From positions 26,554-90,553 of the forward strand of contig DATKZA010000121.1 in the NCBI GenBank assembly GCA_035528155.1: a stretch of DNA of 64,000 nucleotides, read 5' to 3'. The position numbers were made by a program, and so were the translations under genes. Shown piece by piece: positions 8,497-59,187 of this stretch; the first letter of the stretch is position 1; each line of letters opens with the position of its first letter. Origin of the DNA: Patescibacteria group bacterium. Lineage in GTDB: Bacteria > Acidobacteriota > Aminicenantia > UBA2199. Below the pieces are notes generated by a model. The model made no database searches. It worked only from the letters and a program-made list of their open reading frames with translations, and was not told where the DNA came from.

Positions 8497-11400
8497 ATGG
8501 TACTTCACGCACAAATTGCAAATTCCGCGCCCCTCCCTTATAATGCCTGCATGGGGTTTGGCAAAAGACTCGAAGCGGGCTATTTTTTCAGTGTGCCGGA
8601 CTTTGCCGATCCGGACAAGAACCTGGCGGCCCGGCAGATTTTTGTCATCGTAAGGGCATTCTTCGTGTTCGCGGTTTTGCTGCAGCTCCTGCAGGTCGCC
8701 CTGGACCCGAAAATAACCGTGCGCTGGTTTGTGTTGTTTTGTGCCACTTTCGCGGTCAGCGTCATGTTGCTGGAACTTGCCAGGCGCGGCCATGTCCGTC
8801 TGGCTTCCTTCCTGCTGGTGTTGAACTTGTGGCTGCTGGTCGGCGTATTCGCCTGGACGAGGATCGGCCTGGGGACGCGGGCCGCCTACGGCTATTTCAT
8901 CGTTGTTTTCATCGCCGGCATGGTGCTGGGCAGGTGGCCGGGGATCATCACGGCGGCGCTTTGCAGCGCTTCGACACTGGCCATCGCCCTGGCGGCTCCG
9001 GTGGCTTCGTCCGACCCCGTCCGCTTCTGGCTGGTCAACTCGTTTTACCTGCTGATCGTGCACCTGCTGCAGAACCTGTCCTGGCGCTCCATAAGGGAAT
9101 CCCTGGTCAGGGCCCGCAGCGAATTGCGGGAACGGCAGCTGGCTGAAACCGAGCTGCGCAGCAGCGATGAGCGATTCAAACAGCTGTCTTCGCTCACCTC
9201 GGAAGGAATTGTGATCCAGGCGGATGGCATCATCCTGGACGCGAACCAGGCATTCGCAGAACTTACAGGCTACGCAAACTCTGACCAGCTGATTGGGAAG
9301 AATGGCCTGGAGATCATTTCATTTACAGCGGAATCGCGAAAACGTGTGTTCGCCCATATGAGCAATCACTCCACCGAAACTTACGAAGTCGAAATTATCA
9401 AGCCGGACGGTTCATTGCTTTCAGCCGAGACCCATGGCAGGGAGATCAACTATCTTGGACGCCAAGCGCGCCTCGTCTCCATGCTTGACATCACCAAGCG
9501 CAAACAGTCGGAGGGTGAATTGCAGGCACGTGAGAATTTGCTCAGCAGTATTTTTCGCGCTGCTCCGACCGGGATTGGCGTGGTGAACAACCGGGTTTTA
9601 ACATTAGTCAATAGCCGGATTTGCGAAATGATCGGCTGGACTCAGGAAGAACTGATCGGCAAAAGCTCGCGGGTTCTCTACGTCAGTGATGCCGATTTTG
9701 AATATGTGGGAAAGAAAAAGTACCGGCAGATCGCTGAACGAGGCACGGGGACGGTGGAAACGCGCTGGCAGTGCAAGGATGGTCGCATCATCGATGTGCT
9801 GTTGAGCTCCACTCCGATCAATCCGTTGGATCAATCCGCCGGAGTGACGTTCACCGCTCTGGACATTACCGACCGCAAGCAGGGAGAGGAAAAACTGCTG
9901 GAGAGCGAGCGGCGTTACCGGACGCTTTTTGAATCGGCCGGTGATGCCATTTTCCTTCTGCATGGGGACCGGATCATTGACTGCAACTCCAAAACACTGG
10001 AGGTGTTCGGTTGTGGCCGTGAACAAATGATCGGTCTGCCCATATCGCGATTTCATCCAGCCCAGCAGCCCGACGGCAGAGATTCGCTGGTTATAGGCAA
10101 GGAGAAAAACACGGCGGCCCTGACCGGAGGCTCGCAATTTTTTGAATGGCGGCATGTCCGCTTCGATGGTGCTCAGTTCGATGCCGAGGTCAGACTGAAC
10201 CATATCCAACTGGTCGCCGGAGACTTTTTACTGGCCCTGGTACGCGACATTTCCGAACGCAAAAAACTGGAAGAGCAGTTGCGCCAGGCGCAGAAAATGG
10301 AAGCCATCGGCATCCTGGCCGGAGGCGTAGCCCATGATTTCAATAATATCCTTTCGACCATCGTCGGCTACACTTCCCTTTTGCAAATGAAGCTGAAAGC
10401 CGATGATCCGTTTAAAGAATACATCGAGCGCATCCTCTCCGCCACCGAGCGGGCGGTGAACCTGACCAGCAGCCTTCTGGCTTTCAGCCGCAAGCAGGAG
10501 ATCGAATTGCGTCCGCTTGACATCAATGACACCATTTACGGTTTCCACAAGATCCTGGCGCGGCTGATCGGGGAGGATATCGATTTCCACCTCGACCTGG
10601 CCAGCCAGACCCTGGTGGTGGACGCCGATGTCCGCCAGATCGAGCAGCTGCTGATGAACCTGGCCAACAATAGCCGCGACGCCATGCCCCGGGGAGGCAA
10701 GCTGACCATCCGCACCGATGCCGTCGTTTTAACGGAGACACGCGCCGAGATTCCCGCCGGATCCTATGCCGTCGTAACGGTTACCGACAGCGGCTCGGGC
10801 ATGACCATGGATGTCCAGGCGCACATCTTCGAGCCCTTCTTCACCACCAAGGAAGTGGGCAAGGGGACCGGGCTCGGAATGGCCATGGTTTACGGCATCG
10901 TCAAAAAGCACAACGGCTTCATCCACATGGCCAGTACAAGCGGAGCGGGGACCACTTTCAGCATCTATCTGCCCTTGAAGGCGCAAACCGTAAAAAAAAC
11001 AGCGCGCCGCAAGCAGGAAAAAATCCCGGCCGGGAGCGAAACCATTCTCCTGATCGAGGACGATGCTGCCGTCCGCCAGGTGACCCGTTCCATGCTCGAG
11101 GAATTCGGCTACACCGTGCTGGAAGCGGCAAACGGGATCGAAGCCCAGACCGTGTTCCAGCGGCAGCGGGACCAGGTCCAGCTGGTCTTATGCGACCTGA
11201 TCATGCCCAAGATGAACGGCCGCGAAACGTACGCCGCGCTCCAAAAAATCAAGGGCGATATCAAGGTGGTCTTCATGAGCGGCTATACCGCCGATATCAT
11301 CGCCGGCAAGGGCATCGCCGATCCCGGCGTCCAGCTGCTCCAGAAACCGCTGAACCCGTCGACTCTGCTCAAGAAAATCCGCAGTGTGCTGGACAAATAA
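8497..11400 (+). CDS. Hybrid sensor histidine kinase (membrane N-terminus, multiple PAS domains, HisKA, HATPase_c, C-terminal receiver)
   Basis: H-box [16 protein letters not shown] boxes ([25 protein letters not shown]), receiver D in [13 protein letters not shown]. Confidence 0.85.
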
Positions 11401-14005: not shown

Positions 14006-16033
14006 ATGATGGATAAAATCGGCAAATACACGATAAGCGGCGAAATCGGCAAGGGCGGCATGGGGGTGGTCTACCGCGGCCTGGATCCCGTGATCGGCCG
14101 TTCCGTGGCCGTCAAAACCGTCCGCCTCGATATCCTGAGGGGGGAGAGCGGCAGGGAAGACGCGCTCAAGCGCTTCCTGCGCGAAGCCCAGGCGGCCGGC
14201 AATCTCTCCCATGCCAATATCGTTACCATTTACGATGTCGGCGAACACGAGGGGCTGATCTATATTGCCATGGAGTTCATCGACGGCTGCAGCCTGGAGC
14301 AACTGCTGCAGCAGGAAAGGAAATTCACACTGCAAGAGATCACCCATTTGTTCAGCCAGATCGGCTCGGCCCTGGATTACGCCCATGGGAAGGGGATCGT
14401 CCACCGCGACATCAAGCCGGCTAACATCCTGGTCGGGCGGGACCTCAAGGTCTCCATCGTCGATTTCGGCATCGCCCGTACCGCCGCCTCGACCATGACC
14501 CAGACCGGCATGCTCATGGGGACACCGCGCTACATGTCCCCCGAGCAGATTGCCGGAAAAAAGGTGGACAACCGTTCTGACATTTTTTCCCTGGGAGCCA
14601 TCTTGTACGAGCTGTTGACCCAGCACAATCCCTTCGCAGGCGAGAGCATTACCACCGTCATTTACAAGATCATGCACGCCGAACTTCCCCCGCTCAGCGA
14701 TTTCAACAAGCAGCTGCCGGCCGGCCTGGAAGGCGTGGTCAAAAAGGCTCTGGCTCGCGACGCCGACGCCCGGTATCACAGCTGCGGCGAACTGCTTGCC
14801 GACTTGAAAAAATACGCTTTGGCCGTTCCGCAAGGCGCCACGGTCAGGGAAAGCAATTTTTACGACCATGATACGCAGCTTTTGGAAGTTGCCGGGAACA
14901 CGGTTTTTTCCGCGCCGCGCCGCCGCCGGAAACCGCTGTTGTTTTTGACGGCGTTGCTGGTCGGATTGCTGGCCGCCGCCCTTTTTGTCTTCTGGCCCGG
15001 GAGGCGAACGAATGTTCTTCCTTCCCCTGAAGGCGGTGAGATTTCCCGGCCGGCAGCCGCCCAGGAAAACAGCGGGACCGCGGGCCGCGATGTCGCTCCC
15101 GATCAAGCTGCGGTTGACACGTCCGGCCCGGACGGCCTTTTGCCTGGAGGCGAACCGGAGCCGGCCAAGAAGACCGACACCCTGCCGGCTGCCGCTGGGA
15201 CCGGTGTCCGGCCCGGGGCGCCCGTTGAAAAGCCGCTTGCTGAAATTGCCCAGGCGCAAAGCGTTGCCGGTGGGATTCAGGATGAAAGATCGCGCGCCGA
15301 GGCCGCAGCTGCCAATAAAAAAGGCTTCCTGGAGCGGGTTTTTTTCAACGGCACGGTTATGGTACAGGTCCGCCAGGGCAATTTTACCATCGGTTCTCCC
15401 AGGGGGGAAGGCGACGCCGACGAACATCCGGCCCACAAGATATTCATCAGCGATTTCTGGCTGGGAAAAACCGAAGTGACTTTTGAGCAGTTCGATTTAT
15501 TCTGTCGTGAAACCGGGCGCAGCCTGCCAAGCGATGAGGGTTGGGGCCGGGGCAGCCGGCCGGTGATCAATGTTTCCTGGGACGACGCGGACAGCTACTG
15601 CCGCTGGCTGGCGCAAAAAACCGGCCGCAACTTCCGCCTGCCGCGCGAGGCCGAATGGGAGAAAGCCGCCCGCGAAAAGTATCCCTGGGGCAGGAGCTCT
15701 CCAAGCGCAAACCAGGTCAACATGAAGGGCAAGGCGGACGGTTTTGCCTTCACCGCCCCGGTCGGCTCGTTTGCTTTAGGAGAATCGCCTTACGGCATCC
15801 TGGACATGGCCGGGAACGTCTGGGAATGGATGGCCGACTGGTACGACCCCGGCTATTACCAGGCAGCGGCCGGCCGCGACCCGCAAGGTCCGGCCGCGGG
15901 CAAAGACCGGGTGGTACGCGGCGGTTCCTGGAGAGACGGATTGGAGCTGATCCGTTCCGCCAACCGCAGCAGCGAGCGTCCGGAGCGGCGCCTGAACGTG
16001 CTGGGCTTCCGCGTGGCCATGGACTACCGCTGA
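14006..16033 (+). CDS. Hanks-type Ser/Thr protein kinase fused to a C-terminal formylglycine-generating-enzyme (FGE/SUMF1) domain
   Basis: Kinase motifs GxGxxG, VAVK, HRDIKPANIL, DFGIA, SPE; TM helix; C-terminal FGE-sulfatase region ending RGGSWRD...VLGFRVAMDYR. Confidence 0.85.
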   Translation: MMDKIGKYTISGEIGKGGMGVVYRGLDPVIGRSVAVKTVRLDILRGESGREDALKRFLREAQAAGNLSHANIVTIYDVGEHEGLIYIAMEFIDGCSLEQLLQQERKFTLQEITHLFSQIGSALDYAHGKGIVHRDIKPANILVGRDLKVSIVDFGIARTAASTMTQTGMLMGTPRYMSPEQIAGKKVDNRSDIFSLGAILYELLTQHNPFAGESITTVIYKIMHAELPPLSDFNKQLPAGLEGVVKKALARDADARYHSCGELLADLKKYALAVPQGATVRESNFYDHDTQLLEVAGNTVFSAPRRRRKPLLFLTALLVGLLAAALFVFWPGRRTNVLPSPEGGEISRPAAAQENSGTAGRDVAPDQAAVDTSGPDGLLPGGEPEPAKKTDTLPAAAGTGVRPGAPVEKPLAEIAQAQSVAGGIQDERSRAEAAAANKKGFLERVFFNGTVMVQVRQGNFTIGSPRGEGDADEHPAHKIFISDFWLGKTEVTFEQFDLFCRETGRSLPSDEGWGRGSRPVINVSWDDADSYCRWLAQKTGRNFRLPREAEWEKAAREKYPWGRSSPSANQVNMKGKADGFAFTAPVGSFALGESPYGILDMAGNVWEWMADWYDPGYYQAAAGRDPQGPAAGKDRVVRGGSWRDGLELIRSANRSSERPERRLNVLGFRVAMDYR

Positions 16034-22455: not shown

Positions 22456-22540
22456 TGCCGAAGGGGGGACTCGAACCCCCGCAAGCGTAAAGCTCACCAG
22501 TACCTGAAACTGGCGTGTCTACCAATTCCACCACTTCGGC
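22456..22540 (-). tRNA. tRNA-Leu (anticodon CAG), type II long variable arm; CCA not encoded
   Basis: GCCGAAGTGGTGGAATTGGTAGACACGCCAGTTTCAGGTACTGGTGAGCTTTACGCTTGCGGGGGTTCGAGTCCCCCTTCGGCA folds as a cloverleaf; anticodon stem CCAGT/ACTGG with loop TTCAGGT. Confidence 0.85.
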
Positions 22541-23806: not shown

Positions 23807-26197
23807 ATGACCGCCAAAACCCGGATTTTCATTTTATTTTTGTTCCTGATATGGATTGCCGCTTTGCCGGTCTTTGGTCAGGACACAGATGATGATAACG
23901 AGTTCATCATCTCAAGTTTCATGCTCGAGCGCTTGCCGGGCGGATATTTTTATCCGAATTTTTTTGAAAACTTGGCTCCGGACGCTACTTTCCTGATCGA
24001 GGAAAGCAATGGTTTCGCCCAACTTGATTTTCCCAAGGTTTATTTTGAAGGCGATTCTTATTCTCAGTTCAACTGGTTTTTTAACGGTTTTTCGATCAAC
24101 TCGGCCCTGGATGACGGTGCCCCGGCTTTCCAGCTGCCCTTTCTGACCATTGACTCTATGGCTTTGCAAAGCGAAACTCCCCAGCACCGCGACTATGGAT
24201 TTCATTTCCGTCTGCGCTCCCCGGTTGTAACCCGTTCACGGCTGATGGTTTCTTCTGTCTTTCCCAATATGGGCGGCTATACGGCACTGGGGAAAATGGC
24301 TATCGGCAACCATGCCAGTCTCAGAGCCGATAACCTGTACAGCGGCCGCCGGCAAATTTCCGGAAATCAAGCGTTTGATTACTCTTGGGAAACGAAATCG
24401 CCGCATTCTTCCTTTTTGCTGGGCCTGAGTTATTTCAATCAGGAACGCCGCTTCAACGATTTCAATTTCCGTGATGCCCAGTTTGCTGAAAAAGGCAACC
24501 TGCTGCAGCTTCTATCCCGCTGGCAAAGAGCATATGCCCGGGGAGTGCTTGATTTGTCCCTGGCGGTGAATGGCATCCGGCGCGACCGTTTATTTGCTGA
24601 GGAAGGGCGCTACCCCCAGGAAACCTATGATTTGGATAAAAAAACCTGGTTTGCCGGGGTTTCCTGGCAGGGCCGGCCGTTAAATTTTAGATTTTCCTGG
24701 CAGCTGGAATGGGAAAGACGGACACCAACGGTTCTGGACGCCGGCAAGGATTTGCAAGACATTGATGGGCAGGGATTTTATCCTTTTGAGAAGTGGGGTG
24801 ATTTTGGGGCAAATACCCTGGCTTTAGTTATCGATCAAAAGTATTCTTTTTCTTTACTGGGGGAAAAAGTCGAATTTGAACCTTTCCTGAACCTATCAGC
24901 CGTTCTTTTATCAGCGGCCGAACAAACCGGGTCAAGCAACGCCCTGTATTTCTCCAACCAGCCTTACCAGGTTATCGAATGGCAGAAAGGCGCTGAATAC
25001 CGCAATCAACGATTTCTGGGAACAGGTGGAGCTGAGTTGGCAATAACGATGGCTAGGAAAATCACCCTTAATGCCCGGCTATTTTTCCAATATCAGGAGC
25101 TTGTATTTGGGACGGCGCGCAATAATAGCCGTTTTTCCCAACCAGGTGGCGAACTTGGTATCACTTGGTTCGCTAATATCAAAACCAGGATTTCATTATC
25201 TTATGGCATTCTGCCTTATGAATTGCGAGCCAATGTCAGCGATTTCCTGGAAGACCAGCGTCCCGGAGCGTCCATTTTTTACTGGAATGATGACAACAGC
25301 GACGGCCGCTTCCAGAACCAGGAAAAAGGCGCTTTATTCGGTCAGGTCGGCGGTCCCAGCCATTTCCTTTCTCCGAATTTGCAACCGCCTCAACGGGAGC
25401 GCATCCTGCTGCAGCTGAACACTCGGCTCTCAGCCAATTTCAACCTTAACATCAAGGGACTCTACAAAAAAATCCGCCAACCCATATGGACATATTTCTC
25501 CGATAATTATGGCTATTACGAAGAGGTTGCCGGCCAGAATTACTATTTTTTCGACCGCCCGTTCAGCGCTTTTAAACTGGATAATGCCGCCTTTGACAAA
25601 GATCCGTTTTATGCCCAGTTGCTTATTCAATTGCAAGGACAAAAACTTCAGCGCTGGTTTTTTTCATTTTCTTTCCTGGCCCATATAGGCATGGGCTATA
25701 CTGCTTTTGGTAACGGTCCAACCGCCAATGATATCGGTATCATTTCCGAAAGCCAGGCTTTTCCGAATGCCTGGATCAATGGCTATGGGCGTGTCGACGG
25801 CGATCGGGCTTTCGTCAGCAAGATTTTTTTTGGTTACTATTTATCACGGCGTTTATTTCTGAGTGCCAGCATCAAATATCGTGACGGTAATCCGTTCGCT
25901 TTTATCAATGCTTTTAAGAAAAATGACCAATGGATCATCACCTACCAGACCATCAAGGCTGAGGATAAATATGGCAAAAAAGGCGGTCCAAGAGAGGATT
26001 GCCTTTGGGATTTCAATTTTAAATTCGGTTATGAGATTTCTTTGTTCGGTAAAAAAGGCCGTCTGGAACTTGAATTGTTCAATCTTCTGGATTTTGGCCT
26101 CGAATTGTCAGAAAATGTTTTTTCCGGCAGCAGCCGCCTGGCCAACGAACTGCAGCTGCCGCGCAGTTTGCGGCTGGGCCTGGTCCTGGAGTTATAA
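23807..26197 (+). CDS. Large hypothetical secreted/outer-membrane protein (796 aa); no recognisable domain
   Basis: Signal peptide; Gly/Tyr/Phe/Asn-rich with beta-strand-like alternation; GC visibly lower than neighbouring genes. Confidence 0.45.
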   Translation: MTAKTRIFILFLFLIWIAALPVFGQDTDDDNEFIISSFMLERLPGGYFYPNFFENLAPDATFLIEESNGFAQLDFPKVYFEGDSYSQFNWFFNGFSINSALDDGAPAFQLPFLTIDSMALQSETPQHRDYGFHFRLRSPVVTRSRLMVSSVFPNMGGYTALGKMAIGNHASLRADNLYSGRRQISGNQAFDYSWETKSPHSSFLLGLSYFNQERRFNDFNFRDAQFAEKGNLLQLLSRWQRAYARGVLDLSLAVNGIRRDRLFAEEGRYPQETYDLDKKTWFAGVSWQGRPLNFRFSWQLEWERRTPTVLDAGKDLQDIDGQGFYPFEKWGDFGANTLALVIDQKYSFSLLGEKVEFEPFLNLSAVLLSAAEQTGSSNALYFSNQPYQVIEWQKGAEYRNQRFLGTGGAELAITMARKITLNARLFFQYQELVFGTARNNSRFSQPGGELGITWFANIKTRISLSYGILPYELRANVSDFLEDQRPGASIFYWNDDNSDGRFQNQEKGALFGQVGGPSHFLSPNLQPPQRERILLQLNTRLSANFNLNIKGLYKKIRQPIWTYFSDNYGYYEEVAGQNYYFFDRPFSAFKLDNAAFDKDPFYAQLLIQLQGQKLQRWFFSFSFLAHIGMGYTAFGNGPTANDIGIISESQAFPNAWINGYGRVDGDRAFVSKIFFGYYLSRRLFLSASIKYRDGNPFAFINAFKKNDQWIITYQTIKAEDKYGKKGGPREDCLWDFNFKFGYEISLFGKKGRLELELFNLLDFGLELSENVFSGSSRLANELQLPRSLRLGLVLEL

Positions 26198-26202
26198 GGC
26201 TT

Positions 26203-26547
26203 TTACCGGCTTTTGCTCTCCAATTTTTCTTGGCAGGGGACGCAGAAGCGGGCAAAGGGCAGGACTTCCAGGCGCTTGGAGGATATTTCCTGGCCGCAGT
26301 GCAGGCATTTGCCGTAATGGTTTCTTTCGATGCGCTCCAGGGCTTCCTCCACTTCCTTCAGGTTGGCCCGCATGTTGTTGGACATGACAAAGCCCATTTC
26401 CTTTTCGATCAATTCGTTGGCCTGGTCGATCTCGTCCATGGCGCCACCGCCGCCGTTGGACGTATCCCGCCACTCGATCACTTTCAGAATTTCATCACGC
26501 AGGGCCTGGAGTCTTTTTCTTATTTTAGGGTTCTGTTCATTTTTCAT
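26203..26547 (-). CDS. DksA/TraR-family C4 zinc-finger protein
   Basis: Coiled-coil region followed by CLHCGQEI...CVPC zinc finger (CxxC-N17-CxxC). Confidence 0.8.
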   Translation of the reverse strand: MKNEQNPKIRKRLQALRDEILKVIEWRDTSNGGGGAMDEIDQANELIEKEMGFVMSNNMRANLKEVEEALERIERNHYGKCLHCGQEISSKRLEVLPFARFCVPCQEKLESKSR

Positions 26548-26556
26548 TTTTATCTC

Positions 26557-27021
26557 CTAGCGGTGATATTTGCCGCCATTTATTATGGTCACTGCCCGGT
26601 AGACCTGTTCCAAAAAAACGATGCGGAATATGTCGTGAGCGAAGGTCATATCGGAAAATGATATTTTTTGATTGAACTTCGCGGCCAGGGCCGGGGCAAA
26701 ACCGGCAAAGCCGCCGATCAGAAAGACCAGGCGGCCGGGGTGATAAGAGATTTTTTGCCCCAAAAACCGAGCAAACTGCAGCGAGTCCATTTTCTTGCCC
26801 TCCCTGTCCAGGGCAATGACAAAATCTTTTTCGCGAATTTCCTCAGCAAACATGATACCTTCCTTCTCCCTCACGAAAGCTTCCTCTTTGTTTTTTGTCT
26901 CCTTCAATTTTTTTATGCTGAATTTTACATAATAATTAATGTTTTGTAAATATTTTTTTTCAAGTTCTTGCAGGCCCTTGAATTTTAATTCGCCGCTGCA
27001 GATCAATTCAATGTTCTTCAT
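26557..27021 (-). CDS. rlmH: 23S rRNA (pseudouridine1915-N3)-methyltransferase RlmH (SPOUT)
   Basis: VIALDREGK...LVFLIGGFAGF...SFSDMTFAHDIFRIVFLEQVYRA matches the RlmH/YbeA family. Confidence 0.85.
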   Translation of the reverse strand: MKNIELICSGELKFKGLQELEKKYLQNINYYVKFSIKKLKETKNKEEAFVREKEGIMFAEEIREKDFVIALDREGKKMDSLQFARFLGQKISYHPGRLVFLIGGFAGFAPALAAKFNQKISFSDMTFAHDIFRIVFLEQVYRAVTIINGGKYHR

Positions 27022-27928
27022 GCTTTTTCAGCTTGTTGTACAATGATTTGCGCGAGATGTTAAGGATGCGCGCCACCCGGCTCTTGTTCTTGTATTTGCG
27101 CAACAGGTAGGCGGTATACTCGGCTTCCACCTCGGCCAGTGAACGCTCGCCCGACTGGATGAGGTCCAGAATGGGGCGCGGCCGGTCCAGAAGGGTCCAA
27201 ACGCCTTTTTCGTCCAGAATGCAGTCGCGCACGGCCAGGCCGTTCACGAAGTTTTCGAGTTCACGAATGTTGCCGGGCCAGGGGTATTGCAGCAGCTTTT
27301 GCCGGGCTTCCTCGCCGAGTTGAATTTTCACCCCTTTTTCAGTACAGAAATAGTTCAGCAGCGGCAGGATATCTTTTTTGCGTTCGCGCAGGGGCGGGAT
27401 GAAAATGCTGACCGTGGAGATCCGGTAATAGAGGTCGGCACGAAACTCGCCGCGGCGAACTTTTTCCTCGATGGTGCTGTCGGCCGAGAACAGGAAACGG
27501 GCCGCGATGTCGGCTTCCTGATTGCAGCCCAGGGGGAATATCTTTTTTCTTTCGATGACGCGCAAAAGCTTGGCTTGCATATGCAAACTCAAGAGATCGA
27601 TCTGGTTGAGGAAGATCGTGCCGTTCCCGGCCTGGCGCCATTTCCCCAAAAAGTCACGGTCGGCACCGGAAAAAGCCCCTTTCTGGTAACCGAACCATTC
27701 GCTTTCCAAGAGTGTTTCGGGCACATCGCCGCAGCCCAGATTGAGCAACGGTTGGAAGGGGCTGCTGCCGGCCAGGACGGCCGCCCAGAAATCCTTGCCG
27801 CTGCCGGTTTCGCCCCACAAGAGGACGGGCGTATCCAGCCCGGCGACTTTTTCGATCGCGGCCTTCACGGCCAGCGATTTTGGGTCCGGCAGGTTAGAAA
27901 TCAGGGGAAAAATCGTAACGTTTGGCAT
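27008..27928 (-). CDS. Sigma-54-dependent transcriptional activator (AAA+ sigma-54 interaction domain plus Fis-type HTH) with no N-terminal sensory/receiver domain (PspF-like)
   Basis: Walker A GETGSGKD, GAFTGA-type loop ESEWFGYQKGAFSGA, Walker B IFLNQID, C-terminal HTH VARILNISRKSLYNKLKKH; overlaps the rsfS 3' end. Confidence 0.75.
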   Translation of the reverse strand: MPNVTIFPLISNLPDPKSLAVKAAIEKVAGLDTPVLLWGETGSGKDFWAAVLAGSSPFQPLLNLGCGDVPETLLESEWFGYQKGAFSGADRDFLGKWRQAGNGTIFLNQIDLLSLHMQAKLLRVIERKKIFPLGCNQEADIAARFLFSADSTIEEKVRRGEFRADLYYRISTVSIFIPPLRERKKDILPLLNYFCTEKGVKIQLGEEARQKLLQYPWPGNIRELENFVNGLAVRDCILDEKGVWTLLDRPRPILDLIQSGERSLAEVEAEYTAYLLRKYKNKSRVARILNISRKSLYNKLKKHEEH

Positions 27929-28292
27929 CCATCCACAGCTTTTCCAGTGAAAACTTTTTCCGCCAGTCTGCCGAGAAAATGTTGATGATGAAATCGACGT
28001 AGTCGACCAGAATCCATTCGGACAGCCTTTCACCTTCGCTGCCCAGCGGTTGAAGCTGGAGATCTTTCTTGAGGTTCTCCTTGACGGCGTCGGCCAATGC
28101 CTTGTTCTGGCGAGCGGAGTTGCCGCTGCAAATAACCAGGTAATCGGTCATTTCGCTGATCCCCTTCAACTTTAGGACCGTGATCTTTTCCGCTTTCTTG
28201 TCCAGAAGGATCTGCACGGTTTTCTTGATCTCGCCCGGAATGCGGCGTTTGTGCAGATCTTCCAGGATCAGGCTGAATTCATCCTTCTTCAT
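27894..28292 (-). CDS. rsfS: Ribosome silencing factor RsfS (Iojap)
   Basis: DYLVICSGNSARQNKALADAV is the RsfS signature. Confidence 0.85.
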   Translation of the reverse strand: MKKDEFSLILEDLHKRRIPGEIKKTVQILLDKKAEKITVLKLKGISEMTDYLVICSGNSARQNKALADAVKENLKKDLQLQPLGSEGERLSEWILVDYVDFIINIFSADWRKKFSLEKLWMDAKRYDFSPDF

Positions 28293-28926
28293 ATAGTTTT
28301 ATTTCCTCCATGATCTTTTGCACGTTTTTTTCCACATAGGGAGAAATATCCTGGCCATGGGACATTTTTTTTCTGATGGCTGTGGCCGAGAGTTCCAGGT
28401 AGTCCGACACATAGGCGTGCAGGAATGCGGCTGGGGGTGGGGCCGAGTTTTCGCTTTCACGGCCCAAGGGGATATTTTCCTCGCGCAGCAGTTTCTCCAC
28501 TTTCTGTCGATGGCCGCCCCGGCGCAAAACGATGATGAAAAACACTTCCTGCAGGACCCGGCGGTATTCTTTCCAGGTGCGGATCTTTAAAAATCCCTCG
28601 CTGCCGGTGATAAAAAAGAAGTGTTCGTCCGGCTGCGCGGCTTTCAGTTCGCGGATGGTATCGATGGTCCAGGAATCTCCCTGGCGGTGCAGTTCCATGT
28701 CGCAGGGCAACAAACCGGGGTGGGGAAGCAGAGCGGCTTTGAGCATGGCCAGGCGCAGTTCCGCCGCCGGCAAGGCCTGCCGCTTTTTGTGCGGCGGTTG
28801 GGCGGAAAGAATATAAAGTATCCTGTCCAGGTTGAAGGCGGCTTTGATCTTCAGGCCCAGTTCGATATGCCCGCGGTGAACCGGATTGAAGGTTCCGCCC
28901 AGCAATCCTGTTTTAATCTGGCTCAT
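28279..28926 (-). CDS. nadD: Nicotinate-nucleotide adenylyltransferase
   Basis: GLLGGTFNPVHRGHIEL nucleotidyltransferase (H/T)xGH motif. Confidence 0.85.
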   Translation of the reverse strand: MSQIKTGLLGGTFNPVHRGHIELGLKIKAAFNLDRILYILSAQPPHKKRQALPAAELRLAMLKAALLPHPGLLPCDMELHRQGDSWTIDTIRELKAAQPDEHFFFITGSEGFLKIRTWKEYRRVLQEVFFIIVLRRGGHRQKVEKLLREENIPLGRESENSAPPPAAFLHAYVSDYLELSATAIRKKMSHGQDISPYVEKNVQKIMEEIKLYEEG

Positions 28927-29911
28927 GAAATGCGAAAATGGTTTTTTTCAATTTTTCCAGGTTGATCCCTCTAAGCGCCGATATTTCCACGTAGGGGATT
29001 TTACGCTTTCTGCAATAATTTCGCAAGACGTCGATCCGGGTCCTGTTTTCAGCAGTCAGATCAATCTTGTTGGCGGCCACAACCAGTTTTTTTTGCAGCA
29101 GCCGCGCATGGTGCATTTTCAGTTCGTTTTCCAGGACTTCATAACTTTTCATGGGGGGCAGGGAGCTGAAAGGCGACACATCGATGACGAAAAGCAGGAC
29201 CCTGGTCCGCTCGATGTGCCGTAAAAATTCCAGGCCCATGCCTTCGCCCTGGTGGGCGCCTTCCAGAATGCCTGGAATGTCGGCCACGATTAAACTCTTG
29301 TTCTTGAAATCCACCACGCCCAGGTTGGGGATGAGGGTGGTGAAGGGATAGTCGGCGATCTTGGGCCGGGCGGCGCTGATTTTTGAAATCAAGGTCGATT
29401 TGCCGGCATTGGGCAGTCCGACCAATCCGGCAAAAGCGATGAGTTTCAGTTCCAGGATTACCTTGATGACTTCGCCTTTTTCGCCCTTTTCGATCCGGCG
29501 CGGGGCCTGGTTGACCGAGGATTTGAAATGGATGTTGCCGCGGCCGCCTTTGCCGCCTTTGGCCAGGAGGAATTCCTGGCCGAGGCGCTCGAAGTCGAAT
29601 ATCAGTTTTTCGTCGGGAAAGGTCTTGACTACGGTCCCGGCCGGGACCTGGAGAATGATGTCAGCCCCTTTTTTGCCGGATTGCTTTTTGCTCCGGCCCT
29701 GGCCGCCGTTTTCAGCCTGGAACTGGCGTTTGTACTTAAAATCTGTCAGGGACTGGCAAACCTGGCTGCTGACCAGGATGATGTTGCCACCCTTGCCGCC
29801 GTCGCCGCCGTCCGGGCCGCCGTGCGGGATGAACTTTTCGCGGCGGAAGCTTAAACAGCCGTCGCCGCCGTTGCCGGCGCCGAATGAAATGATTGCTCTG
29901 TCAATAAACAT
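28913..29911 (-). CDS. obg: GTPase Obg/CgtA
   Basis: Gly-rich Obg fold N-terminus (GGDGGKGGN) followed by GTPase G1-G4 motifs (GLPNAGKST, DIPG, NKID). Confidence 0.9.
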   Translation of the reverse strand: MFIDRAIISFGAGNGGDGCLSFRREKFIPHGGPDGGDGGKGGNIILVSSQVCQSLTDFKYKRQFQAENGGQGRSKKQSGKKGADIILQVPAGTVVKTFPDEKLIFDFERLGQEFLLAKGGKGGRGNIHFKSSVNQAPRRIEKGEKGEVIKVILELKLIAFAGLVGLPNAGKSTLISKISAARPKIADYPFTTLIPNLGVVDFKNKSLIVADIPGILEGAHQGEGMGLEFLRHIERTRVLLFVIDVSPFSSLPPMKSYEVLENELKMHHARLLQKKLVVAANKIDLTAENRTRIDVLRNYCRKRKIPYVEISALRGINLEKLKKTIFAFHEPD

Positions 29912-29967: not shown

Positions 29968-30219
29968 TTAATTGGGATCGACCTCGACGAATTTGTGCCC
30001 GGACCTGTCGACAAAGCGCACCTTGCCGGTAGCCAGGGCAAAAAGGGTGTCGTCCTTGCCGATGCCGACATTTTTACCGGGTCTGATGCGGGTGCCGCGC
30101 TGGCGGACTATGATGGAACCGGCATGGATCTGCTCGCCGCCGAATTTCTTGACGCCAAGACGCTTGGATGTGCTTTCCCGTCCATTTTTCGCGCTGCCGC
30201 CCGATTTTTTATGTGCCAT
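29968..30219 (-). CDS. rpmA: 50S ribosomal protein L27
   Basis: [16 protein letters not shown]...GKVRF is an unmistakable L27. Confidence 0.95.
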
Positions 30220-30566
30220 TATTCCGTCTCCTTGGTTTTGGCGCTGGCTTTGATCTCGATTTTTTCGATCTGGATCTTGTGGAGTTTCTGCCGGTGTCCC
30301 TGCGATTTGCGGTAGCCTTTTTTGGATTTCATCTTGTAGATGTGGATCTTTTCAGCCTTGATCTCATCGAGAACTTTCGCCTTGACTTTGGCGTTCTTGA
30401 CGTAGGGATCGCCGATCAGTACATCTTTATCGCCCTGAACCAATAAAACCGTGCTCAGGTTGGCCGTATTTTTTTTGACGAACTCTTCGGGAAGCAGTTC
30501 CACTTCCAAAATGTCGCCTTCGGCGATCTTATACTGCTTTCCGCCGGTTTCAAGTATGGCAAACAT
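30219..30566 (-). CDS. rplU: 50S ribosomal protein L21
   Basis: [18 protein letters not shown]... L21 N-terminus; start overlaps the rpmA stop. Confidence 0.95.
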
Positions 30567-30630: not shown

Positions 30631-32235
30631 TCAACGGGGTTTTCCCGATTTATTGATTGCTTCGGCAGATTTGCCCTCCGGGCTTGGCACGGGAAAGGTC
30701 AGGCGGGTCTTCCAGCGCGGCAGCTCCCGGGTCAGATTCAGGAGCTCGATCAGGCCTACCGCCAGTTTTACCGTTTGACGCAGGCTTTCCAGCTCCCAGG
30801 CGGGGTCGTATTCGTCTTTGACCGTGTGGTAGGTGCCGCCCTTGAAAAATTCGGCGATGCGCTTGCGCCCCGAAACGAAGTTTTCTCCGGACGAAAGCCA
30901 GATGGCCGGAATTCCGGCCTGGGCGAAGGGGAACTGGTCGGAACGGTAGAAAAACCCCTGATCGGTCAGGGAAAACCGGCTGTAGCCCAGCCCTTGAGCC
31001 GCGGCCACCTGGCGCACGGTCTCCTCCAGGGTCGAATAGCGGCCCCCTACGGCGAAAGCGTCCAAACTCTTTTCCCAGACCGGCGTGGATTCAAAATTGA
31101 TGTTGGCCGCGATTTCTTCGCGTTTGCTGTCGGCCACGAAATATTTCGATCCCAGCAACCCCGCTTCCTCGGCCTGGCAGGCCAGGAAGGTCAGCCCATA
31201 ATGGAGTTCCTTGCCGGCGTTGGCAAAAATCCTGGCGACCAGTGCCAAGGCCGCCACGGCCGAGCCGTTGTCGATGGCGCCGTTGAATATCTGGTCGCCT
31301 TCCAGTTGTTCGTCACGGCCCAAATGGTCTATATGGGCACTGAGTACAATGTTTTTTCCCGAGCTGCCGGGAATTTCAGCGATTACATTGCGGGTTTTAA
31401 GCTGACGTGAGGAGTTACGGCCGGAAATCCTGATCTTGAAACCCAGGTCGACGGGGCGGAATTTGCGGCTGAGCGACTTGCGATACAGGTTCTCCAGGTC
31501 AATTTTATTTTCGGCTAAAAGTGATTTCAGGCTTGGTTCGCGGATCCAGCCCCTGAATTTCAGGTCGTTTTCCAGGCTGGCCGGCAGGTACAGCTCTTCG
31601 CCCGACCAGGAGTTTTTCACCACCTGCCAGTCGTAGCCGGCCGTGGCCGTAGTGTGGATGAGCAAAATGGCTGCTGCTCCGGCCCTGGCGGCTTCCTCGA
31701 TCTTGTAGATCCAGCGGCCGAAATAAGTCAAGGTGCTGCCGTCGAAAATCTGCGGAATGAACAGGCCGGGATCATTGACCCGCACCAGCAGGATTTTCCC
31801 GCGCAGGTCTGTTTTCTTGTAATCGTCCCATTCCCACAGGTGAGTGCGAATGCCGAAGCCGGCAAAAACGGCGTCGCCCTCGAAGCTGAACTGGTTTTCG
31901 GAGCGGGTATAACTCCCGACCGCATCCTCAAGAAACAACAACTCGCGCCCGCAGGCGGATACGTTCAAGGCGCTGAGTTGAAAGCCATGGAGAGCGAACG
32001 GCTGGAAGCGACTGTTCAGCCCCAGCTGCTTGAACAGGCTGTGCATATATATTTCCGCAAGTTCGCCGCCGCGTGTTCCTGGTGCCCGGCCTTCCAGGAC
32101 GTCGGCGCTCAGGAATTCGATCACGCTCTGTAACTGGCCTTGAGAAAGTTTGTCGCAACGGTCCTGCAGGTCGCTGGCCCCTGAAATCCATGTCAAACAC
32201 AAAATAGCCAGGGTGGTGAAGGTGATTTTTCTCAT
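30631..32235 (-). CDS. Secreted M28-family metallopeptidase with a PA domain
   Basis: Signal peptide; zinc-ligand blocks HIDHLGRD, NGAIDNGSAVAALL, ACQAEEAGLLGSKY. Confidence 0.75.
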   Translation of the reverse strand: MRKITFTTLAILCLTWISGASDLQDRCDKLSQGQLQSVIEFLSADVLEGRAPGTRGGELAEIYMHSLFKQLGLNSRFQPFALHGFQLSALNVSACGRELLFLEDAVGSYTRSENQFSFEGDAVFAGFGIRTHLWEWDDYKKTDLRGKILLVRVNDPGLFIPQIFDGSTLTYFGRWIYKIEEAARAGAAAILLIHTTATAGYDWQVVKNSWSGEELYLPASLENDLKFRGWIREPSLKSLLAENKIDLENLYRKSLSRKFRPVDLGFKIRISGRNSSRQLKTRNVIAEIPGSSGKNIVLSAHIDHLGRDEQLEGDQIFNGAIDNGSAVAALALVARIFANAGKELHYGLTFLACQAEEAGLLGSKYFVADSKREEIAANINFESTPVWEKSLDAFAVGGRYSTLEETVRQVAAAQGLGYSRFSLTDQGFFYRSDQFPFAQAGIPAIWLSSGENFVSGRKRIAEFFKGGTYHTVKDEYDPAWELESLRQTVKLAVGLIELLNLTRELPRWKTRLTFPVPSPEGKSAEAINKSGKPR

Positions 32236-32362
32236 ACCGCACCTCTATCATCCGATTTTAGTTGACGCGGGTCGCCAAGTCAAAATATTTTTTTGCGGCT
32301 CGGGGGGATTGAAGCTTTTTTCATTTTGTTGGAAAATAGGTCCAGCGGAGGAGGCAACGAGT

Positions 32363-33052
32363 ATGCCCGGATTACTGACAAAAGCAAAAACCTATTTGTT
32401 GCTGGGAACGTTGTTCATCGCCCTGGCCGGGATTGGCATCTTCCTGGAATTGACCAATCGCCTGGATGGAGATCCCTGGCTGCATGCAGCCGCGATCGTC
32501 ATGCTCAACCTGCTCCTGCTGCTTGGCTGCGTCAGCGTCGTCCGCGGCGCCGTCAGCGAACGGCTCGAATATTATTCCAGCATCGACCCCCTGACCGGCA
32601 TTATGAACCGGGTCTCCTTCTGGCGTGTTTTGGAAAAGGAGATTCGCAGGGTGGAGCGTTATCGCCATCCCCTGGCCATGATCATGCTGGATATCGATCA
32701 TTTCAAAGCCATCAACGATTCACAGGGATCTGCGGTCGGCGACCAGGTGCTGAAAACCATGGCCGGTGAGATCAAGAAAAACATCCGGGAAATTGATTTT
32801 TTCGCCCGTATCGGCGGTGAAGAATTTTTGATTTTGGCCCCGGAAACCGACCGGGAAAGAGCCGTGAACCTGGCGGAAAAGATCAGGGAAACGGTGGCCG
32901 CCATCTCTTTTGTCAAAGCCGGGCCCATCACCATCAGCCTGGGAGTGACACAATTTTGCGCCGGCGACCGGGCCGACCTGCTGCTGACAAAGGTAGACCA
33001 GGCGCTGACCCGGGCCAAGGCCGGCGGCCGCAACCGCGTGGTCTGCTCTTGA
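32363..33052 (+). CDS. Membrane-anchored diguanylate cyclase (GGDEF)
   Basis: Two TM helices followed by DPLTGIMNR...LDIDHFKAINDSQG...RIGGEEFLIL...TRAKAGGRNRV; GGAGGAGG RBS. Confidence 0.85.
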   Translation: MPGLLTKAKTYLLLGTLFIALAGIGIFLELTNRLDGDPWLHAAAIVMLNLLLLLGCVSVVRGAVSERLEYYSSIDPLTGIMNRVSFWRVLEKEIRRVERYRHPLAMIMLDIDHFKAINDSQGSAVGDQVLKTMAGEIKKNIREIDFFARIGGEEFLILAPETDRERAVNLAEKIRETVAAISFVKAGPITISLGVTQFCAGDRADLLLTKVDQALTRAKAGGRNRVVCS

Positions 33053-33070: not shown

Positions 33071-34405
33071 TCAACGGCCGCTTTTCTTTTTTTTGAAATA
33101 GCAGCAATAGGTGTCGCGCCCCTTGGCTTTTGCGGCATACATGGCCTGATCGGCTTTCTTTATCAGGGTTTCGGCGCTGCAACCGTCATGGGGATAAATG
33201 GCCATGCCGATGCTGGTGCTGATCTGCATGCTGCGGCCGGCGATCAGATAAGGGCGGCGGATTTCAGCAAGGATTTTTCCGGCGATATTGCTGCCGGCTC
33301 GGACCCGGCCTGCTTCAGGGAGCAGGATCAGGAATTCGTCGCCGCCCAGGCGGGCCACGGTGTCGCTGCTGCGCAGTTGGTTTTGCAATCGGTCGCTGAC
33401 AACCTTGAGGAGTTCGTCGCCGATGCCGTGGCCGAAAGCGTCATTGATGGCCTTGAAGCCGTCCAGATCGAGATAAAGCAGCGTCACTTTTTTCCGGTGT
33501 CTTTTGGCTTGTTTCAGGGCCTGAACGAGGCGGTCCTGGAGCAGCGAGCGGTTGGGCAGCCCGGTCAGGGAATCCTGGTAGGCCATGCGGTGGATGGCCG
33601 CTTCCATAAGCTTGCGGCTGGTGATGTCGCGGTTGATGCTCAGAATGGCCGGTTGCTTTTTATAGGTGATTAGCGCCGCGTTGATTTCCAGCAGCATTTC
33701 ACTGCCGTCCTTGCGGAAATGGACGGTTTCGAAATTATGGAATATTTTCTCTTGCAAAATATTTTTAATACGCAATTTGCCGCGCCTGACATTTTTGCTG
33801 ATCTTTTCCAGCGATATGCCGATCATTTCCTGGCGGCTGAAGCCGTACAATTCGCAGGCGCGGAAGTTCACGTCCAGGATGATTTCGTCCTGCATGGTGA
33901 AGATGACGATGGCGTCGTGGGCGTTTTCGAACAACTGGCGGTAGTCCTGCTCCGATTGCCGCAAAGCAGCCTCGAAAAGCATGCGCTCGCTGATGTCGAC
34001 CAGGAGGCCGTCATAGTAGAGCACCCGGCCGTCAGGGCCCTTCACGGCTCGGGGGTAATCCCTGACCCAGATGGTCCTGCCGTCCTTGCTGCGCAGTTCG
34101 AATTCGCTGAAAGCGGCCAGGGAGGCGGCCAAGCGCTGCAGGTGGTCCCGTCGTGCTTTTTTTTTGACATAGAAGTCGTTGACATTCACCTGCCACAGGT
34201 CGGCAATCTTCTTGCAGCCCAGGATGTCGGCCAGCGCCTGGTTGGCCTCGATGATGCGGCCTTCGCTGGTGGTGCGGTAGACGCCGACCGGCAGGTGCTG
34301 GAGCAGATCCTGGTAGCGGAATTCACTCTCCCGCGCATTTTTCCCGGAAGCCGGCTCCCTGGCGCTCACGTTTTTGCTTGCTTGCGGTTTTTTCCTCTCT
34401 GCCAT
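33071..34405 (-). CDS. PAS-PAS-GGDEF diguanylate cyclase
   Basis: Two PAS modules then LTGLPNR...LDLDGFKAINDAFGH...RLGGDEFLILLP...AKAKGRDTY. Confidence 0.85.
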   Translation of the reverse strand: MAERKKPQASKNVSAREPASGKNARESEFRYQDLLQHLPVGVYRTTSEGRIIEANQALADILGCKKIADLWQVNVNDFYVKKKARRDHLQRLAASLAAFSEFELRSKDGRTIWVRDYPRAVKGPDGRVLYYDGLLVDISERMLFEAALRQSEQDYRQLFENAHDAIVIFTMQDEIILDVNFRACELYGFSRQEMIGISLEKISKNVRRGKLRIKNILQEKIFHNFETVHFRKDGSEMLLEINAALITYKKQPAILSINRDITSRKLMEAAIHRMAYQDSLTGLPNRSLLQDRLVQALKQAKRHRKKVTLLYLDLDGFKAINDAFGHGIGDELLKVVSDRLQNQLRSSDTVARLGGDEFLILLPEAGRVRAGSNIAGKILAEIRRPYLIAGRSMQISTSIGMAIYPHDGCSAETLIKKADQAMYAAKAKGRDTYCCYFKKKKSGR

Positions 34406-51366: not shown

Positions 51367-51382
51367 TGCAAGTTCCATGCCA
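51367..51382 (-). promoter_or_regulatory. Sigma-54 (-24/-12) promoter TGGCAT-GGAAC-TTGCA upstream of receptor gene 1
   Basis: Coding strand CTTGGCATGGAACTTGCAACACC; GG-N10-GC spacing exact; about 45 nt upstream of the ATG. Confidence 0.55.
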
Positions 51383-51689
51383 AGGGAAGCGGATGGTTTG
51401 AAAACAGCCTGGGGAATTTTTAGTGAACCTGAAAAACTTGAATGGAAGAGGGTTTGCCAGCCAGGACAGGTCGCGGAGAACATTCACCGCAAAGAGTCTT
51501 TTCTTTTTTATTGCCCCTAAAAAATACAAATTATTAATTTTTATTTCAAAAAACAATTAAAAACTCAATTTATTGAACTGCGGATAAGGACTGGCCGGAA
51601 AAATATTGCGCTGATTGAAAAAAAAACTCCTCAAAAAGCATTGGCCGGGCCTGGTTCAAGAAAAAGCGGGTTTGCCTTTTGCTGCTTTC

Positions 51690-58838: not shown

Positions 58839-58885
58839 TTGTTTGTCCTCCTTTTTAGATTTTTAGACAAATCACTAATAATATA

Positions 58886-58900
58886 GCAAGAACCATGCCA
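58886..58900 (-). promoter_or_regulatory. Sigma-54 (-24/-12) promoter TGGCAT-GGTTC-TTGCT upstream of receptor gene 2
   Basis: Coding strand CTTGGCATGGTTCTTGCTATAT; same spacing to the ATG as at gene 1; identical 22-nt AAAAAGGAGGACAAACAAAATG RBS region. Confidence 0.55.
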
Positions 58901-59187
58901 AGTTGACAAAGGGGGCGGCTATTGTCAATCGGAACGGAAACAATTTATAGAAGTGCGCTTATCAATGGTTTCGCCCGGGGGAGGAATGAAACCGTATCGC
59001 TGATAGCGAGAGTAGTTTCTCTGAAACCCGGAAAAATTCAAATAATTGAATAATTATTCAAAAAACAGAATTATGGTTGTTGGAAAACTGGGGGATTCCA
59101 CTTTTGGGTCATTGAAAAGCGGCTGGGTGAGTAGCAAAAAAGTGCCGACCGCCGCTTGGGGACGATCGGCACGATAAAAAACTGATT

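Follow-up and report, generated by a model that had tools for sequence, protein, structure and literature searches.

Sigma-54 transcription is the textbook case of promoter opening that depends on ATP hydrolysis, and in the bacterial enhancer-binding proteins (bEBPs) that drive it the Walker B glutamate is normally assumed to accompany the GAFTGA motif. Engineered proteins in which the two are separated have been studied: Walker B mutants of PspF and NtrC1 bind ATP and assemble into rings that engage sigma-54 (PMC4132715, PMC7175178). The E108Q variant of PspF has <1% of the wild-type (WT) ATPase activity, a 30-fold tighter hold on ATP and a constitutive hexameric state that needs no nucleotide; when plain ATP is supplied, its complexes with the closed complex of sigma-54 holoenzyme resist heparin and depend on GAFTGA, and at 0.02 mM ATP it gives delayed, persistent full-length transcription that high ATP inhibits (PMC4132715). 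E108A is defective on duplex DNA, and rings in which WT and E108Q subunits alternate are still active (PMC4132715). Here we describe a bEBP-like gene, X, that lies between rsfS and rlmH in a 64,000-nucleotide stretch (the window) of contig DATKZA010000121.1 (assembly GCA_035528155.1, positions 26,554 to 90,553), from a genome that GTDB places in the Aminicenantia. Because the ATP-hydrolysis site of its product is naturally crippled, X is, judging from its residues, unlikely to be an ordinary always-on motor; by analogy with the engineered proteins it is probably an ATP-binding, hydrolysis-impaired, sigma-54-engaging DNA-binding protein.

The X product has 306 residues. A longer open reading frame with a GTG start at 28033 was rejected as the gene, since every homologue begins MPN and is ~306 residues long, and independent gene calls on 12 contigs gave a 306-residue product each time. 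Pfam identifies a Sigma54_activat domain (9.6e-44, residues 18-175), AAA_lid_14 (PF25601, 7e-14) and HTH_8 (6.1e-08). The AAA+ match (PF00158) begins at residue 18 of 306 and at profile position 8, which leaves no space for an N-terminal sensor domain, and the sensor-less AAA+ plus helix-turn-helix (HTH) architecture put forward in an earlier reading of this DNA (the original prediction) is borne out. When the protein was compared with the PDB by phmmer, NtrC1 of Aquifex was the best match (1.5e-52), and ZraR, FlrC, NifA, FleQ and PspF were also found. An AlphaFold2 model (pLDDT 76.5) has the fold of bEBP AAA+ domains, with TM-scores of 0.76-0.82 on the target, and its top Foldseek match is 3m0e, the ATP-bound NtrC1 Walker B mutant E239A. 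No equivalog model of NCBIfam reaches its curated cut-off for the X protein.

The original prediction overlooked the Walker B segment, which reads TIFLNQID in place of hhhhDE. In a HMMER alignment to NtrC1, GTLFLDEIGELSL of X aligns without gaps against GTIFLNQIDLLSL (Walker B; GTLFLDEIG in NtrC1), and sensor I is RFLFSAD, as against RILAATN. X was also mapped onto PspF, using a PspF sequence in which the numbering of K42, N64, F85, T86, D107, E108, R162, R168 and R227 is self-consistent. The residues that differ are D107 (N108 in X), E108 (Q109), T148 (A149), N149 (D150), the switch asparagine N64 (G65), E118 (A119), the PspA-contacting W56 (F58), E43 (D46) and T86 (S87); those that are kept are K42 (K45), F85 (F86), R122 (R123), E125 (E126), R162 (R163), D164 (D165), R168 (R169) and R227 (R222, sensor II). 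On this map X would in effect be a natural D107N/E108Q/T86S/N64G/E118A/T148A combination of PspF. The proposed likeness to constitutively active PspF holds for the sensor-less domain plan and breaks down at the catalytic Walker B residues, sensor I, the switch asparagine and the E118 equivalent.

These departures run through the family. Among the 167 unique X-family sequences on which all residue statistics are based, position 109, that of the catalytic glutamate, is never Glu or Asp (Q128/N15/G13/R7/H2/K1), Gln making up 77%; the glutamate is also absent from P0146, a 39%-identical orthologue. Position 108, that of the Walker B aspartate, is Asn in 163 sequences, sensor I has Ala at position 149 in 152 and Asp at position 150 in 154 (SAD in ~90% of the family), and position 65, that of the switch asparagine, is G79/N69/H18. 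In contrast, K45, R123, E126, R163, D165, R169 and R222, together with R293, K294, L296 and Y297 of the recognition helix, are invariant or nearly so. The L1 loop is GAFTGA in 109 sequences (65%) and GAFSGA in 58 (35%), position 87 being only Thr or Ser, and G84, F86, A89 and the flanking ESEWFG are invariant. Among 18 control loci with bEBPs from outside the family, 17 were readable; all 17 have the catalytic glutamate (13 DE, 4 NE), and 16 have ATN or ASN at sensor I. The nearest non-family representatives comprise ~180 AAA+ domains, 153 with a DE Walker B and 115 with an ATN sensor I. Set against these canonical controls, the family pattern indicates that the cis catalytic residues of X are lost or drifting, whereas strict selection still acts on the binding of nucleotide and DNA, on the ring interface and on contact with sigma-54. 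X has the AAA+ domain with its lid, the GAFTGA-type loop, Walker A, the arginine fingers and the sensor II arginine of a bEBP, and lacks a Walker B hhhhDE with catalytic glutamate and the sensor I Thr/Asn. It belongs to the bEBP superfamily; since the Walker B DE and sensor I both fail, the label of a standard sigma-54 "activator" does not suit it.

The cost of such changes can be gauged from PspF, in which single substitutions in the Walker B pair, at the switch asparagine and at E118 leave 0.2-4% of WT ATPase activity (PMC3419264). For the AAA+ domain, the Vmax per min of 39.5 (WT) falls to 0.23 in D107A, 0.15 in E108A, 0.07 in E108Q, 0.60 in E118A and 1.5 in N64Q, and is 22 in E43D (PMC3419264). 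T86S, which creates GAFSGA, is a working activator with weaker closed-complex contact (PMC7229158). By analogy, the residue pattern predicts that ATP-hydrolysis-driven open-complex formation by X is strongly impaired.

The invariance of the GAFTGA-type loop and its flanks across the family points to a maintained contact of X with sigma-54, and it is here that a sigma-54-independent role can be weighed. X might use its AAA+ domain only for nucleotide-dependent oligomerisation and regulate sigma-70 promoters, as do VpsR, the NtrC of Rhodobacter and Caulobacter, NtrX and TyrR. Such proteins typically have degenerate ATPase residues, NtrX and VpsR are among the structural or sequence relatives of X, and VpsR is itself homologous to sigma-54 activators without having the conserved residues that those need (PMC6158489). 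They have, however, lost the GAFTGA motif that X keeps, with residue 87 never other than Thr or Ser, and we regard this role as very improbable.

The division between lost cis residues and invariant trans-acting ones (R123, E126, R163, D165 and R169) is also the pattern expected of an obligate partner that joins a competent bEBP encoded elsewhere, as in HrpR/HrpS or linked WT/E108Q PspF dimers, and supplies L1 loops, DNA binding and trans arginine fingers while its own sites remain ATP-bound. The activity of alternating WT/E108Q PspF rings (PMC4132715) shows that such mixtures can work, and many tandem-AAA+ bEBPs pair one canonical with one Glu-less domain. Yet in ~65 loci there is no adjacent partner gene, and the X family is single copy inside a housekeeping operon, so that a partner role appears improbable.

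The tandem-AAA+ bEBPs deserve mention in their own right. These long proteins, many of which occur among the nearest representatives (P0121, P0122, P0130, P0136-P0141, P0144, P0155, P0156 and P0204), have two or three sigma-54 AAA+ domains, one of which is without the Walker B glutamate and often also without the P-loop lysine or GAFTGA. A further protein, P0266, is sensor-less (327 residues) and has GAFTGA together with a D-Q Walker B. Annotation may understate how common natural degenerate bEBP modules are, and the automatic label "sigma-54-dependent activator" hides catalytically degenerate members, the Glu-less domains of tandem-AAA+ bEBPs included.

X is not confined to one genome. A search of 5.8 billion proteins yielded 120 homologues of 55-97% identity, nearly all 302-315 residues long and, among those carrying organism names, mostly from Aminicenantes. 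A scan of GTDB with one genome per species gave 80 loci, and two metagenome loci were fetched separately; 64 loci form a sharply separate X-family group (46-96% identity), and the next bEBPs are just 34-41% identical. When 1.84 billion cluster representatives were searched with a hidden-Markov model, only about five clusters proved to belong to the X family, P0146 among them. X directly follows rsfS in 64/64 family loci, rlmH comes next in most, and the order rplU-rpmA-obg-nadD-rsfS-X is kept; P0146 has the same obg-nadD-rsfS-X-rlmH setting. X between rsfS and rlmH is thus a class-wide orthologue, ancestral to the Aminicenantes class, and the original description of a gene "wedged" into the cluster by local insertion is misleading. 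Some family records carry other labels (L004 and L017 Chrysiogenales; L016, L023 and others uncultured Clostridia; L051 Omnitrophota; L031 Deferrimicrobium). Since their neighbouring housekeeping proteins, where comparable, are 50-95% identical to those of the window, the labels of these metagenome-assembled genomes look unreliable and we regard the genomes as Aminicenantes-like.

In the window, X overlaps rsfS by 35 nt (27894-27928) and rlmH by 14 nt (27008-27021), the coordinates confirming both overlaps as they had been proposed. The start of X lies in a dual-coding junction, TGGATGGATG, that encodes Trp-Met-Asp of RsfS across the ATG of X, and the RsfS tail beyond the LEKLW motif is coded wholly inside the overlap. 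The junction is invariant in 59/59 scorable loci (L001-L063) spanning 52-96% protein identity; the rsfS/X overlap varies between 23 and 59 nt, mostly 32 or 35, and the X/rlmH overlap is exactly 14 nt in 47/50 loci. Because synteny, overlaps and junction are conserved, with the setting of P0146 included, rsfS-X-rlmH is an old and probably translationally coupled unit. Co-transcription of X with ribosome-maturation genes, which had been claimed from this one sequence, gains support from the 64/64 placement and the 59/59 junction, and X is probably both co-transcribed with and translationally coupled to these genes.

Table 1. Positions of X, its motifs, the surrounding operon and the receptor promoters in the window
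Feature	Position	Strand	Basis or remark
X, sensor-less bEBP-family gene, 306 residues	27008..27928 (ATG at 27928)	minus	Pfam, homologue lengths
Walker A GETGSGKD, residues 39-46	27791..27814	minus	K45 invariant, 167/167 family sequences
L1 loop GAFSGA, residues 84-89, sigma-54 contact motif	27662..27679	minus	Sequence and family alignment
Degenerate Walker B TIFLNQID, residues 104-111	27596..27619	minus	Asp to Asn108, catalytic Glu to Gln109
Sensor I region FSAD, residues 147-150 (ATN in canonical bEBPs)	27479..27490	minus	Alignment
Arginine-finger segment RADLYYR, residues 163-169	27422..27442	minus	R163, D165, R169 invariant
Fis-type HTH, C-terminal, residues 264-303	27020..27139	minus	Pfam HTH_8; R293, K294, L296, Y297 near-invariant
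Dual-coding junction TGGATGGATG, RsfS Trp-Met-Asp overlapping X ATG	27926..27935	minus	Sequence
rsfS, ribosomal silencing factor	27894..28292	minus	Pfam RsfS 2.1e-28
rlmH, 23S rRNA pseudouridine-1915 methyltransferase	26557..27021	minus	Pfam SPOUT_MTase 2.1e-42
DksA/TraR-type C4 zinc-finger gene, last in operon	26203..26547	minus	Pfam zf-dskA_traR 2e-11; DxxDxA tip DEIDQA
nadD	28279-28926	minus	Operon gene upstream of rsfS
obg	28913-29911	minus	Upstream operon gene
rpmA	29968-30219	minus	Upstream operon gene
rplU	30219-30566	minus	Upstream operon gene
Sigma-54 -24/-12 element TGGCATGGTTCTTGCT	58885..58900	minus	Upstream end 62 nt before ATG of receptor gene 55812-58838
Sigma-54 -24/-12 element TGGCATGGAACTTGCA	51367..51382	minus	Upstream of paralogous receptor gene, ATG near 51321
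Enhancer-like block TGTTTTTTGAATAATTATTCAATTATTTGAAT, three TTGAAT/ATTCAA half-sites	59036..59067	minus	~160 nt upstream of -24 element
Diverged enhancer-like copy TGTTTTTTGAAATAAAAATTAATAATTTGTAT	51520..51555	minus	Equal distance from its -24 element

The operon runs rplU-rpmA-obg-nadD-rsfS-X-rlmH-dksA-like, all on the minus strand, with overlaps or gaps of <=56 nt (Table 1). No minus-strand terminator-like site was found between obg and the dksA-like gene, and an Rfam scan of 20-34 kb returned only a tRNA, the operon showing neither leader nor riboswitch. About half of the family loci, among them every closer one, have the dksA-like gene after rlmH; the matches of its product to the DksA-like models of NCBIfam are below cut-off. 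Two predicted RNA polymerase-acting proteins, X and the DksA-like protein, are thus encoded beside ribosome factors. A link of X to growth state is plausible, and we infer it from an operon that also holds Obg, RsfS and the DksA-like protein.

Convergent to the operon, a plus-strand gene (23807-26197) encodes a 796-residue protein with a signal-peptide-like N-terminus and no Pfam or NCBIfam match; it is kept in place in L001 (797 residues) and L163. A tRNA gene lies at 22456-22540 on the minus strand (Rfam RF00005, 56 bits), its 85-nt span suggesting a long variable arm. Of two signalling genes near the operon (8497-11400 and 14006-16033), one encodes a hybrid histidine kinase that is rich in PAS domains and has a receiver, and the other joins a Ser/Thr kinase to an FGE-sulfatase domain; no bEBP-type cognate response regulator for them is present in the window. 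Two GGDEF diguanylate cyclases, one of them PAS-PAS-GGDEF, are encoded at 32150-33052 and 33071-34405, and binding of cyclic di-GMP by X in the manner of FleQ was considered. The idea was dropped, since the post-Walker A Arg-Asn, which we take to be the cyclic di-GMP feature of FleQ, is absent from X (GKDFWA).

The window also holds the two sigma-54 promoters of the original prediction, 23-31 kb from X. A loose sigma-54 consensus is not enriched above chance (33 matches in the window, 37 expected), and the strict pattern TGG[CT]A[CT]-N5-TTGC[ATC] matches just twice, at the two -24/-12 elements of Table 1. Both stand ~60 nt (from their upstream ends) before the ATG of paralogous receptor genes, whose ~1000-residue products combine a CarboxypepD_reg domain with an outer-membrane beta-barrel of the TonB-receptor type. 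When 80 metagenomic receptor homologues were fetched, the -24/-12 element was present in ~50 of the roughly 70 with enough upstream DNA, and in close orthologues it keeps the same 55-61 nt. Alignment of the upstream regions brings out a conserved block, TTTTTGAAT-N4-ATTCAA-N4-TTTGAAT, ~160 nt upstream of the -24 element; its common form is TTGAAT-N4-ATTCAA-N4-TTGAAT, which in the distant homologues L109, L136, L138 and L150 lies ~90-98 nt from -24. Because element and enhancer are conserved together in receptor orthologues, we take the two promoters to be genuine, the lineage to use sigma-54 and a dedicated enhancer-binding protein to exist. X is the sole bEBP-type gene in the 64 kb, as had been stated, which says little about the whole genome, and the two receptor promoters at 51.4 and 58.9 kb with their enhancer are candidate targets only. 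The annotated genes of the window include no other bEBP, rpoN or PspA (PspA/IM30), and none was found in the flanks of the family loci.

Two further features of the 58.9-kb promoter were noted. A palindrome, TGACAA-N12-TTGTCA (58904-58927, minus strand), abuts its -24 element, is kept in the closest orthologues L083 and L085 and has one mismatch in L145; it could be the site of a repressor or second regulator. The receptor 5' untranslated region (58841-58875, minus strand) is strongly conserved, ending in TTTGTCTAAAAATCTAAAAAGGAGGACAAACAA-ATG, and TTTGTC and GACAAA can pair in it around the Shine-Dalgarno sequence; the hairpin was discounted, being no more stable than shuffled sequences (z = -1.0).

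We propose a mechanism in which the AAA+ site of X, once a fast ATP motor, now binds ATP and hydrolyses it very slowly or not at all, while the parts for DNA binding, ring assembly and sigma-54 contact have been kept. By analogy with PspF E108Q, X would bind ATP tightly and form hexamers without any signal, sit on an enhancer through its Fis-type HTH, engage the sigma-54 closed complex with raised GAF(T/S)GA loops and turn it into an open complex only slowly, thus acting as a low-turnover "housekeeping" or poising factor without futile burning of ATP. Since X has no sensor domain and no anti-activator is encoded nearby, its activity would be set by its amount; this in turn would be hard-wired to the rplU-rpmA-obg-nadD-rsfS-X-rlmH-dksA operon through the overlapping, translationally coupled frames, and sigma-54 output would track the ribosome-maturation and silencing programme. 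That X is such a constitutively assembled, slow-turnover activator or poising factor with output set by dose is a proposition we hold to be evenly balanced. It is favoured because Gln dominates the glutamate position, the arginine fingers are invariant and a fully active, unrestrained sensor-less bEBP would be a futile ATP sink. A more speculative variant, which we think doubtful, is that the nucleotide site has been turned from motor into sensor: ATP occupancy, reflecting energy charge or a competing nucleotide, would set ring assembly and raising of the GAFTGA loop, X would lock or slowly open closed complexes according to energy state, and its fixed ratio to RsfS and RlmH would tie a sigma-54 regulon, for example nutrient-scavenging outer-membrane receptors, to ribosome silencing. 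If true, this would be an unrecognised class-wide circuit joining sigma-54 and ribosome silencing.

Several observations weigh against a slow activator or poising factor. Asp111 is invariant in the X family (Glu in P0146) and Asp150 is common; these family-specific acids lie close to those that were lost and might in principle restore catalysis. X might then be an ordinary always-on sigma-54 activator that hydrolyses ATP adequately, through a rebuilt Asp111/Asp150 site or because Asn/Gln are tolerated, and drives the receptor promoters along with ribosome-operon expression. Such an activator would need the GAF(T/S)GA motif, Walker A, both arginine fingers, sensor II and HTH that are all invariant; some Bacillota bEBPs that are canonical in other respects likewise have Asn at the first Walker B position (LLNEIG), and the real promoters with their enhancer have no local activator gene. 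However, the glutamate position varies freely, which is unexpected for a working base, and four more ATPase positions are changed (Walker B Asp, sensor I Thr, switch Asn and the E118 equivalent). Canonical bEBPs already hold a non-catalytic acid one residue beyond Asp111, at +4 (DEIGE/D), and for this reason Asp111 may be a simple helix cap and was rated down as a relocated catalytic base. In classical AAA proteins the motif is DEID, and Glu is still catalytic. The PspF variants D107A, N64Q and E118A each lose >95% of ATPase activity, no PspF value being found for the sensor I Thr (PMC3419264). We consider an ordinary activator unlikely.

Also unfavourable to slow activation, ~23% of the family has N/G/R/H/K at the glutamate position, and in PspF only Gln, not Ala, activated on duplex DNA; these residues would fit a non-activating role better. 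X could accordingly be a brake, its ATP-locked ring holding sigma-54 region I or the closed complex and keeping sigma-54 genes off while the ribosome operon is highly expressed, with release at shutdown. PspF variants at the Walker B Glu do form stable ATP-dependent assemblies with sigma-54 and with the closed complex, and at normal ATP their action on duplex DNA is defective (PMC4132715); the glutamate position of the X family tolerates G/R/K/H, and the operon of X also encodes two growth-state regulators, RsfS and a DksA-like protein. A pure inhibitor, however, would have no obvious need for strictly conserved arginine fingers and DNA-binding helix, and the dominant residue, Gln, is the sole substitution that keeps activation in PspF; a brake is in our view quite unlikely. 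Finally, the targets of a slow activator are not seen close to X: the strict sigma-54 pattern has 0 matches within 5 kb of X in 587 kb of the 64 family loci, which rules out an adjoining sigma-54 promoter as its target, and TTGAAT-N4-ATTCAA has merely two 1-mismatch, chance-like matches in the family loci and nothing significant at 26-31 kb of the window.

The literature that was searched contains no link between rsfS and a bEBP, no sigma-54 in Aminicenantes, no natural Glu-less GAFTGA bEBP and no account of the X family, which is not proof of absence. A natural "E108Q-like" bEBP, with its sigma-54 contact motif kept class-wide and its frame in dual-coding overlap with rsfS and rlmH, would make it possible to ask in a natural system whether ATP binding by itself can do regulatory work at sigma-54 promoters, and would open a way to learn how Aminicenantes, which are uncultivated and grow slowly, tie genes for the envelope and nutrient uptake to the translation machinery.

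How X relates to described systems can be summarised as follows. PspF of E. coli shares the AAA+ domain (~35% identical to that of X) and C-terminal HTH without an N-terminal regulatory domain, as well as the Walker A Lys, L1 loop, arginine fingers and sensor II. In X, however, NQ replaces the Walker B DE of PspF, AD replaces the TN of sensor I, and Gly and Ala take the places of N64 and E118; the PspA-contacting W56 is Phe (F58), no psp operon is near, and X lies within a ribosome-maturation operon, whereas PspF is divergent from its target. The protein scores far below both PspF equivalogs (TIGR02974, 171.9 bits vs a cut-off of 443.55; NF008622, 151.9 vs 529), and on these scores, the missing W56 and the missing psp operon we conclude that X is not PspF.

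HrpR and HrpS are sensor-less and controlled in trans, their genes are adjacent, and both subunits keep canonical catalytic motifs. In Pseudomonas syringae they are strictly co-operative (PMC3105312), with HrpV as negative regulator (PMC4145663). Together with other pairs (RedR1/RedR2, VnfA/AnfA) they establish that bEBP rings of non-identical subunits are possible; X, in contrast, stands alone: its site is degenerate, and no partner gene adjoins it. VpsR, the NtrC of Rhodobacter and Caulobacter, NtrX and TyrR are natural relatives in which the AAA+ domain is no longer a sigma-54 remodelling motor, the residues missing from VpsR being those for sigma-54 binding and ATP hydrolysis. The GAFTGA contact with sigma-54 has been lost in VpsR (PMC6158489) and is reported to be lost in Caulobacter NtrC (bioRxiv 10.1101/2023.06.06.543975), whereas the X family strictly conserves a GAFTGA-type motif. 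A loose genomic parallel is the rpoN-hpf linkage of Proteobacteria, which puts the sigma-54 system beside a ribosome hibernation or silencing factor (PMC3162934); there it is the sigma factor gene that neighbours hpf, while here, in a different phylum, a bEBP-type gene overlaps rsfS and rlmH.

The closest functional analogues of X appear to be the engineered PspF E108Q and NtrC1 E239A. As in these mutants and in PspF D107A, the catalytic carboxylate of X is gone and the P-loop, arginine fingers and GAFTGA-type loop are intact, and we infer from the likeness that X binds ATP without hydrolysing it efficiently. The mutants carry engineered single changes, however, whereas the state of X is natural, fixed across a bacterial class, and adds the Walker B D-to-N, sensor I, switch Asn and L1 Thr-to-Ser changes.

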